A stretch of 64,000 nt of DNA from Escherichia phage Pu-Krd-SF1, in the sequence record PQ249395. The stretch is one strand, 5' to 3'. Shown here in pieces: positions 31,410 through 33,527 of this stretch; position 1 is the first letter of the stretch, and each line of letters begins with the position of its first letter. The notes below the pieces were generated by a model. That model did no database searches and was not told the origin of the DNA. It was given only the letters and a program-made list of their open reading frames with translations. The translations under genes were made by a program, and so were the position numbers.

Positions 31410-31912
31410 GTACCTTTAACTTCCATAAGAACATGGAAATCATGGAAGGTAATGCCAAGATTATGAAGTTCATTGCACGCGATGAACAGCTTCACCTTAA
31501 AGGCACCCAATATATTATTCGTCAGCTTCAATCCGGTACTGATGGTGATGAATGGGTTAAAATTGCTCAAGAGTGTGAACAAGAAGCAGTTGATATTTTC
31601 ATGGAAGTTAACCGTCAAGAAAAAGACTGGGCAGTTCATTTATTTAAAGATGGCGATGTTCCTGGATTAAATACAAATAGCATGTGGAGCTTTATTGATT
31701 ACTTAACTGTATCTCGTATGAAACAGTGTGGTCTTCCATGCCCAATTACCGATGCTCCGGTTAAACATCCATATCCTTGGATTCGTGAATACCTTAATTC
31801 TGATAATGTTCAATCCGCGCCGCAAGAAGTAGAACTGTCATCTTACCTTGTAGCACAGATTGATAATGATGTTGATGATAAAGTTATGATGAGTTTTAAA
31901 AAATATTTTTAA
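31410..31912 (+). CDS. nrdB: ribonucleotide reductase small subunit NrdB, exon 2
   Basis: TFNFHKNMEIMEGNAKIMKFIARDEQLHL... R2 C-terminal half. Confidence 0.8.
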
Positions 31913-31916
31913 GGAG

Positions 31917-31939
31917 TGGGCCGCAAGGCCCATTTTATT
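31917..31939 (+). terminator. hairpin (GGGCC-GCAA-GGCCC) + U-run after nrdB; lies between denA SD and AUG
   Basis: 6-bp GC stem with GNRA-type loop followed by TTTTATT. Confidence 0.55.

Positions 31940-33527
<1,588 letters not shown>

Follow-up and report, generated by a model that had tools for sequence, protein, structure and literature searches.

A conserved tetraloop hairpin between the Shine–Dalgarno sequence and the start codon of denA in T4-type phages: a candidate split ribosome-binding site

Anatomy of the nrdB–denA junction

Our analysis concerns the junction between nrdB, which encodes a reductase subunit, and denA, which encodes the GIY-YIG nuclease endonuclease II, in a 64,000-nucleotide stretch of Escherichia phage Pu-Krd-SF1 (sequence record PQ249395; hereafter the window). 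The window comes from a T4-type phage: over its bases 31500-32400, identity is 100% to Escherichia phage Pu-Krd-SF5 and about 98% to T4, and the local gene order is nrdB, whose intron carries I-TevIII, followed by denA and rnlA. An earlier reading of these letters (the original prediction) had proposed that a hairpin between nrdB and denA acts both as a terminator and as a structure-dependent enhancer of denA translation, and had suggested a comparison with the T4 junction. Over the 33 bases that begin with the nrdB stop and end with the denA ATG, the T4 reference genome is identical to the window; its ATG lies at T4 coordinate 137927. The junction comprises the following features:

31433..31912, plus strand: 3′ part of nrdB exon 2, from the open reading frame list and the annotation of matching records; stop codon TAA at 31910-31912
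31910..31916, plus strand: Shine–Dalgarno (SD) sequence UAAGGAG, read directly; its first three bases are the nrdB stop UAA
31917..31932, plus strand: hairpin with 5′ arm UGGGCC (31917-22), GNRA loop GCAA (31923-26) and 3′ arm GGCCCA (31927-32)
31933..31939, plus strand: U-rich tail UUUUAUU of 7 nucleotides (nt), read directly
31940..32350, plus strand: denA (endonuclease II, GIY-YIG), 136 amino acids, ATG at 31940, from the open reading frame list, the conserved ATG, the structure 2WSH and the Pu-Krd-SF5 annotation

The sequence bears out most of what had been read from it, namely an AAGGAG that overlaps the nrdB stop and lies 23 nt upstream of the ATG at 31940, and a perfect 6-bp stem with a GCAA loop followed by TTTTATT. 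Together with the T of the stop codon, AAGGAG (31911-31916) makes a 7-nt match to the canonical SD, and UAAGGAG is the longest SD match near any gene start in the window. From its last base to the A of the ATG there are 23 nt, which corresponds to an aligned spacing of 22. The stem begins 4 nt past the nrdB stop and consists of six perfect pairs, five of them G-C. The hairpin by itself has a predicted energy of -11.6 kcal/mol, and a fold of 66 nt of context reaches -16.8 kcal/mol (z = -3.2), a stability that none of 200 shuffles attained. In the energy model the stem is lengthened further, as GGAG pairs with UUUU via G-U and A-U pairs. The tail at 31933-31939 holds no SD; it probably serves as the effective SD–AUG spacer once the hairpin is folded and also as the U-tract of a terminator-like element. 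The claim that AAGGAG is the sole SD-like sequence did not hold, as a 4-nt AAGG at 31925-31928, made up of the AA of the loop and the first two G of the 3′ arm, lies at an aligned spacing of 8. It is half buried in the stem and occurs within the hairpin only in T4-type phages, being missing from relatives with a UUCG loop.

Covariation and geometry in related phages

We gathered nrdB–denA junctions from viral contigs, metagenome contigs and GenBank phages and reduced them to about 30 distinct sequences. They stem from Tequatrovirus, Mosigvirus, Dhakavirus, Gaprivervirus, Jiaodavirus, Moonvirus, Kanagawavirus, Marfavirus, Gualtarvirus and unclassified Straboviridae, so that at least nine named Straboviridae genera, mostly Tevenvirinae, are covered, and the DenA proteins of the sampled relatives are 58% to 99% identical to that of the window. 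All junctions but one share the same plan, in which the stop codon merges into an SD-like motif (TAAGGAG, TAAGGA, TAAAGGA, TAAGG, TAGGAG or TAAGAG) and is followed by a G-C stem of 4-7 bp, a tetraloop, a tail of 6-10 nt and the ATG.

An alignment of 28 distinct junctions over the six stem pairs was compared with 500 shuffles. The pairs are standard in 95.2% of the cells, a value reached by 0 of the 500 shuffles, and four of the six pairs have changed on both sides, giving 28 double-change cells, which no shuffle matches either. When the partner is slid by one column, pairing falls to 64-70%. Of the 28 loops, 23 read UUCG and those of the two T4-type variants GCAA or GUAA, while UUUG, UUAG and a 5-nt loop occur once each; the C-G pair that closes the loop is retained in 27. 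Because this preference for UUCG or GNRA loops is seen on the sense strand and the closing C-G pair is kept, the alignment points to selection acting on the coding-strand RNA.

The positions of the flanking signals are equally constrained. In the relatives, where the SD was assigned by contiguous matches 5′ of the stem, an SD-like motif stands at this place in 27 of 28 junctions, 0-2 nt (once 4 nt) from the stem, and the nrdB stop overlaps the SD in every one of them. Stop codon and ATG are 26-28 nt apart (32 nt in the single junction whose stem is two pairs longer), and the tail between stem and AUG measures 6-9 nt, once 10 nt. Unfolded, the aligned SD–AUG spacing of the relatives is 20-26 nt (median 22); after subtraction of the hairpin it is mostly 5-8. 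Folded spacing is 6-10 nt in all relatives but one and 7 nt in the window, where the 74 genes with a normal SD have aligned spacings of 3-13 with a mode of 5; folding of the hairpin would thus bring the denA signals to a normal distance, as had been foreseen. A scan of the whole window against Rfam found no family at its gathering score and, around the site, only sub-threshold chance hits. The same null result extends to the nrdB and td group I introns in the window, presumably owing to their inserted open reading frames.

Within the window, seven genes carry a GC hairpin within 40 nt upstream of their start. In six of them the SD lies 3′ of the hairpin, with tails of 11-33 nt, whereas denA alone has its SD 5′ of the hairpin, none after it and a tail of 7 nt. 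A distant SD with an intervening hairpin is found only at denA and gene 25 among the 92 mapped genes. Separately, 18 of the 92 annotated starts lack a contiguous SD match of at least 4 nt at an aligned spacing of 2-13; among these SD-poor starts, several of which are overlapping or coupled, none but that of gene 25 shows a distant SD plus hairpin.

The start codon to which this spacing refers is well supported. Every lineage has this ATG, Pu-Krd-SF5 and the majority of the other records annotate it as the start of a 136-amino-acid protein, and in the construct of PDB 2WSH the residues MKEIA follow the tag, which matches the ATG start. Residue numbering in the field, as far as the example of E118 goes, fits this start by alignment (PMC2764454). 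Initiation of denA elsewhere had been named as a finding that would overturn the proposal, and the comparison speaks against it: the ATG at 31940, and not a GTG upstream of it, is the conserved start.

The arrangement has limits. Distant DenA homologues (30-50% identity) are not encoded behind nrdB and lack it, and they mark its phylogenetic boundary. In Krischvirus (Phi1/RB49 type), denA follows another gene and is preceded by a hairpin and U-tract and then an ordinary SD, GAGGAAAGG. About 50 nt 5′ of denA in phage Phi1 (our contig L123), an upstream stop TAAGG abuts a G-C hairpin, GGGCGGGA-GAAA-UCCCGCC, with the strong SD GAGGAAAGG after it; the Phi1 layout may be a vestige of the Tevenvirinae arrangement or a parallel to it. 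An ATGA overlap joins denA to its upstream gene in Aeromonas phages 25 and Ah1, and in a Slopekvirus a 3-nt gap without an SD precedes it. Yersinia phage fHe-Yen9-01 (KY593455; L027/L065, about positions 990-1003 of L027) has an nrdB–denA ATGA overlap with no hairpin, SD or spacer. Its nrdB part resembles VR5-like phages and its denA resembles TG1 and phiR1-RT, which match it only from denA onward, and the TG1 junction (L025) retains the hairpin. By this comparison the fHe-Yen9-01 junction looks recombinant, with the breakpoint exactly at the ATG. Judged from their sequences, these exceptions show that denA repeatedly relies on coupling to its upstream gene and that the hairpin is not indispensable.

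A further group of DenA-like matches, of 40-43% identity, lies on contigs of up to about 158 kb, several of them from the human microbiome (L078-L082 and L105-L108), and is not next to nrdB. Their aligned frame contains in-frame TAG codons, for example in ACC GAT GTT TAG TTA GAT, which may reflect stop-codon recoding.

A candidate split ribosome-binding site and its alternatives

The comparisons above establish the structure, its covariation, the fixed geometry, the SD position and the ATG start. That ribosomes use this geometry we infer by analogy with T4 genes 25 and 38, and RNA polymerase would terminate at the hairpin part of the time, in a role that varies by lineage to a degree. With moderate confidence, we read the hairpin as an RNA structure under selection, one that provides the spacer in a split ribosome-binding site of denA and doubles as a leaky terminator or 3′-end protector for nrdB. 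The SD UAAGGAG would stand at the 5′ foot of the stem and the AUG 7 nt past its 3′ foot, such that with the stem folded a 30S subunit held on the SD would meet the AUG at a normal distance. This subunit could be freshly bound or could have remained after termination of nrdB translation. Stem and U-rich tail would at the same time act as a weak, leaky terminator and protect the 3′ ends of nrdB transcripts, and both effects together would step expression down from an abundant reductase subunit to a potentially harmful nuclease.

Split sites of this kind have been described for two T4 genes, in which folding reduces the spacing from 22 to 5 nt (gene 38) and from 27 to 11 nt (gene 25) (Nivinskas et al. 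1999; Malys and Nivinskas 2009; in PMC3014915). The 2010 review of post-transcriptional control in T4 names genes 38 and 25 as the only split sites, is silent on denA and confines the gene 25 arrangement to close T-even phages (PMC3014915). The original prediction had pointed to a like architecture elsewhere in the window, and this is real:

53884..53917, plus strand: split ribosome-binding site of gene 25, with GAGG, a 7-bp hairpin CUCAAAG-AGUU-CUUUGAG, an 8-nt tail and the ATG at 53915; published spacing 27 nt

As in genes 25 and 38, where the SD lies 22-27 nt from the AUG with a hairpin in the spacer and 5-11 nt remain on folding, the denA signals are 23 nt apart and would come to within 7 nt, and the denA SD likewise lies at the end of the upstream gene. 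Unlike in these two genes, the SD of denA overlaps the stop codon, and the denA case comes from sequence comparison. The stem also differs from the A-U-rich stem of gene 25, being short and G-C-rich with an extra-stable tetraloop and a terminator-like U-tract, and the arrangement extends over at least nine genera. The hairpin sequence itself is already known: it has been in the T4 genome for decades, automatically annotated as a terminator. What is distinctive, as judged across the sampled junctions, is the G-C tetraloop-terminator form and a conservation far wider than that described for gene 25. On this analogy, denA is likely to be a third T4 split ribosome-binding site, and an unusually widespread one. 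If so, it would join the only two structure-bridged sites cited for T4, those of genes 25 and 38, as the most widespread of the three; it would also be the strongest comparative case for ribosomes routinely accommodating a hairpin between the SD and the AUG, with natural compensatory variants ready at hand.

Several observations weigh against a split site that doubles as a terminator. The energy model pairs GGAG with the U-tail, and longer contexts predict the SD to be mostly paired, which would hinder ribosomes; long-context folding, however, gives many weak A-U pairings and is not to be trusted in a translated A-U-rich region. In T4-type phages, the AAGG inside the hairpin lies at normal spacing and could serve once the stem melts. 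In Serratia phage 4S, which retains hairpin and spacing, the AAGG runs into the stem so that no SD is free, and the tail is not U-rich; several lineages have only TAAGG or TAAG as their SD. By a rough terminator d-score, whose formula follows d'Aubenton-Carafa et al. 1990 and whose values are indicative only, about half of the lineages have a good U-tract and the others a poor one. Yersinia phage fHe-Yen9-01 does without the hairpin, and because it manages with an ATGA overlap, the hairpin appears dispensable where coupling substitutes for it. Finally, the accessible literature yields no experiment on the nrdB–denA site.

The main rival holds that the hairpin is only a terminator or 3′-end stabiliser for the nrdB mRNA and that denA is made by ribosomes that re-initiate 27 nt downstream, with no positive role of the stem in initiation. 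This coupling would explain both the overlap of stop and SD, seen in all junctions, and the hairpin-less variants, and it finds parallels in the denA relatives outside the group, which are tightly coupled to their upstream gene (Aeromonas 25, Ah1, the Slopekvirus and fHe-Yen9-01). The U-rich tails fit it as well, and given the ribosome footprint, a ribosome bound at the stop would be expected to melt the 5′ arm. We nevertheless regard it as possible, if unlikely. A pure terminator needs neither a fixed distance of 6-10 nt to the AUG nor an SD at its 5′ foot; the six other upstream GC hairpins of the window have variable, longer tails that bear an SD of their own; and the hairpin and its geometry persist in several lineages without a U-tract. 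Re-initiation across 27 nt is, moreover, inefficient unless something shortens the path. The denA site does resemble translational coupling, in that the ribosome-binding site contains the upstream stop and hairpin-less relatives use an ATGA overlap, but it differs from overlapping stop and start codons in that these lie 27 nt apart with a stable structure between them.

A single 16-nt element would couple transcription read-through and translation re-initiation to upstream ribosome traffic if the stop/SD, the tetraloop hairpin and the AUG formed a conserved hand-over device, a reading that we put forward tentatively and consider rather unlikely. A ribosome ending nrdB would melt the stem, and its 30S subunit would stay tethered at the SD that overlaps the stop. 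The extra-stable hairpin would then refold and draw the denA AUG into the P site. Translation of denA would be strictly proportional to that of nrdB, at a much lower fixed ratio, and termination of transcription at the stem would likewise hinge on how far ribosomes occupy the stop.

A different role for the structure is that of a brake, in which pairing of the SD with the U-tail extends the hairpin, hides the SD, crowds the AUG and keeps the level of a toxic nuclease low until a ribosome reaching the end of nrdB opens it. The minimum-energy fold of the T4 type does pair GGAG with UUUU into a 10-bp helix of -16.4 to -16.8 kcal/mol, UAAGG can pair with CUUUA of the tail in three other junctions (L010, L018 and L034), and longer contexts predict a mostly paired SD. 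The extra pairs are, however, G-U or A-U and out of register between lineages, and a purine-rich sequence pairs trivially with a U-rich one. Freeing the SD would cost 0-5 kcal/mol (median about 1) and leave the core stem intact, which is less than the gain from the SD:anti-SD duplex, worth about -7.8 kcal/mol for the T4 type, and a conserved tail of 6-10 nt suits initiation geometry better than occlusion. We therefore think a brake improbable; split site, coupling and brake are nevertheless not mutually exclusive.

The weakest alternative turns on a further feature of the T4 annotation:

31916..31918, plus strand: in-frame GTG, the denA start in RefSeq NC_000866.4 (144 amino acids; T4 coding sequence 137517-137951), probably not the real start

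If denA began at this GTG, the hairpin would be coding sequence and the SD question would vanish. In its favour stand the RefSeq coding sequence, which corresponds to the GTG, the open frame from the nrdB stop onward and, in the L009 group, an in-frame ATG at the same position (-24). Such a start is nevertheless very improbable: the GTG overlaps the SD at zero spacing and sits in the stem; apart from the T4 type with its GTG and the L009 group with its ATG, no lineage has an in-frame start at -24; in four lineages (L020, L021, L026 and L030) stops interrupt the frame between -24 and the ATG; and the invariant ATG, the solved structure and the E118 numbering all speak for the shorter protein. 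By this comparison the RefSeq start at T4 coordinate 137951 is probably a start-codon mis-annotation.

Two other candidates were rejected. RegB cleavage at GGAG fails as a family-wide explanation, as GGAG is not conserved (relatives mostly have AAGGA[A/C/U]) and there is no A-rich 3′ context. A DNA-level EndoII site (CCGC, in the loop region of the T4 type) fails as well, its motif being missing from the UUCG-loop relatives and the loop preference being specific to the RNA strand.

Termination, read-through and neighbouring features

Of the dual role that was predicted for the hairpin, the part in translation gains comparative support from the covariation, the geometry and the ATG, whereas the part in termination stands only partly. 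The T4-type element, with five G-C pairs followed by UUUUAUU, resembles a modest intrinsic terminator, and one GenBank record labels the stem a putative terminator. The tails of the family are 64% U, compared with 30% U and 46% A in the last 7 nt before the other starts of the window, and at least five U are present in 13 of 26 tail types versus 2 of 91 other genes. The tails are thus under some pressure to carry a U-tract. The rough score, however, is positive only for T4, Moon and a few other types, and GUAAAGCU, AUAAAGCU, CGUUACU and CUUUAGU are examples of tails that make poor U-tracts. A simple terminator scan of the window did not list the nrdB–denA hairpin, which we attribute to an extension of the stem into the T-run via G-T pairs and not to absence of the feature.

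The surrounding transcription signals leave room only for leaky termination. There is no promoter between the hairpin and the denA ATG, where 7 nt provide no space for one, and nrdB exon 2 contains no late or MotA-type signal and a single weak sigma-70-type match (9 of 12) at 31491-31518. The nearest recognisable signals are TATAAATA at 30429, a late type before I-TevIII, and a MotA-box-like site at 32351, before rnlA. A next gene with its own promoter, the arrangement looked for behind a terminator, is not what is found at denA. With no promoter of its own after the hairpin, denA must depend on read-through, and any termination must be partial and leaky. Because the stem starts 4 nt after the stop, a ribosome on the nrdB stop should moreover cover or melt its 5′ arm and thereby prevent termination.

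A comparable hairpin with a short U-tract, that of the nearby T4 mobE, terminates 30-50% (PMC2790892). The denA element shares with this weak terminator a G-C stem, a 4-nt loop, a short U-tract and a position directly after the stop codon, and similar leakiness would be expected. It departs from intrinsic terminators in general in that neither promoter nor SD follows the hairpin, the AUG is only 7 nt away and the U-tract is unconserved in about half of the lineages. The only hint from expression is a published time course in which nrdB RNA falls into the early class and denA RNA into the middle class (PMC9697503 supplement).

Intercistronic hairpins with C(UUCG)G and GNRA loops are a known feature of T4, reportedly since the work of Tuerk and colleagues in 1988. 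The nrdB–denA hairpin resembles them as an extra-stable structure between genes, of which there are about 15 more in the window, and differs from those others in that the SD of denA precedes the hairpin, whereas elsewhere the SD of the next gene follows it. For the nrdB–denA hairpin, denA translation and T4 3′-end maps, the accessible literature gave nothing specific, although an older mention is possible.

The junction also matters for annotation. Gene finders and RefSeq pick a GTG inside the hairpin as the denA start of T4, and predictors call the stem a plain terminator although denA depends on read-through. As to dosing, a phage may use some 30 nt of RNA to adjust the amount of a potentially self-damaging nuclease to that of an abundant metabolic enzyme.

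Several features of the neighbouring genes were recorded alongside. The nrdB intron contains a full-length I-TevIII-like open reading frame (30464-31273, 269 amino acids, TTG start), upstream of which lie a TGCTT box at 30405 and TATAAATA at 30429; mobE is missing between nrdA and nrdB in the window. With a full-length I-TevIII-like frame and no mobE, the window is therefore RB3/T2-like here by sequence, unlike T4 itself, in which I-TevIII is truncated and mobE is present. An 8-bp perfect inverted repeat, GTCAATCG-caa-CGATTGAC, is found at 32266-32284 within the denA coding sequence. The denA–rnlA gap (32351-32402) contains the MotA-box-like ATGCTTCCA, followed after 12 nt by TACTAT, which gives it the look of a middle promoter; an inverted repeat, CCACAT-GGA-ATGTGG, overlaps the spacer of this site, and an SD, GAGG, lies 7 nt before the rnlA ATG at 32403.

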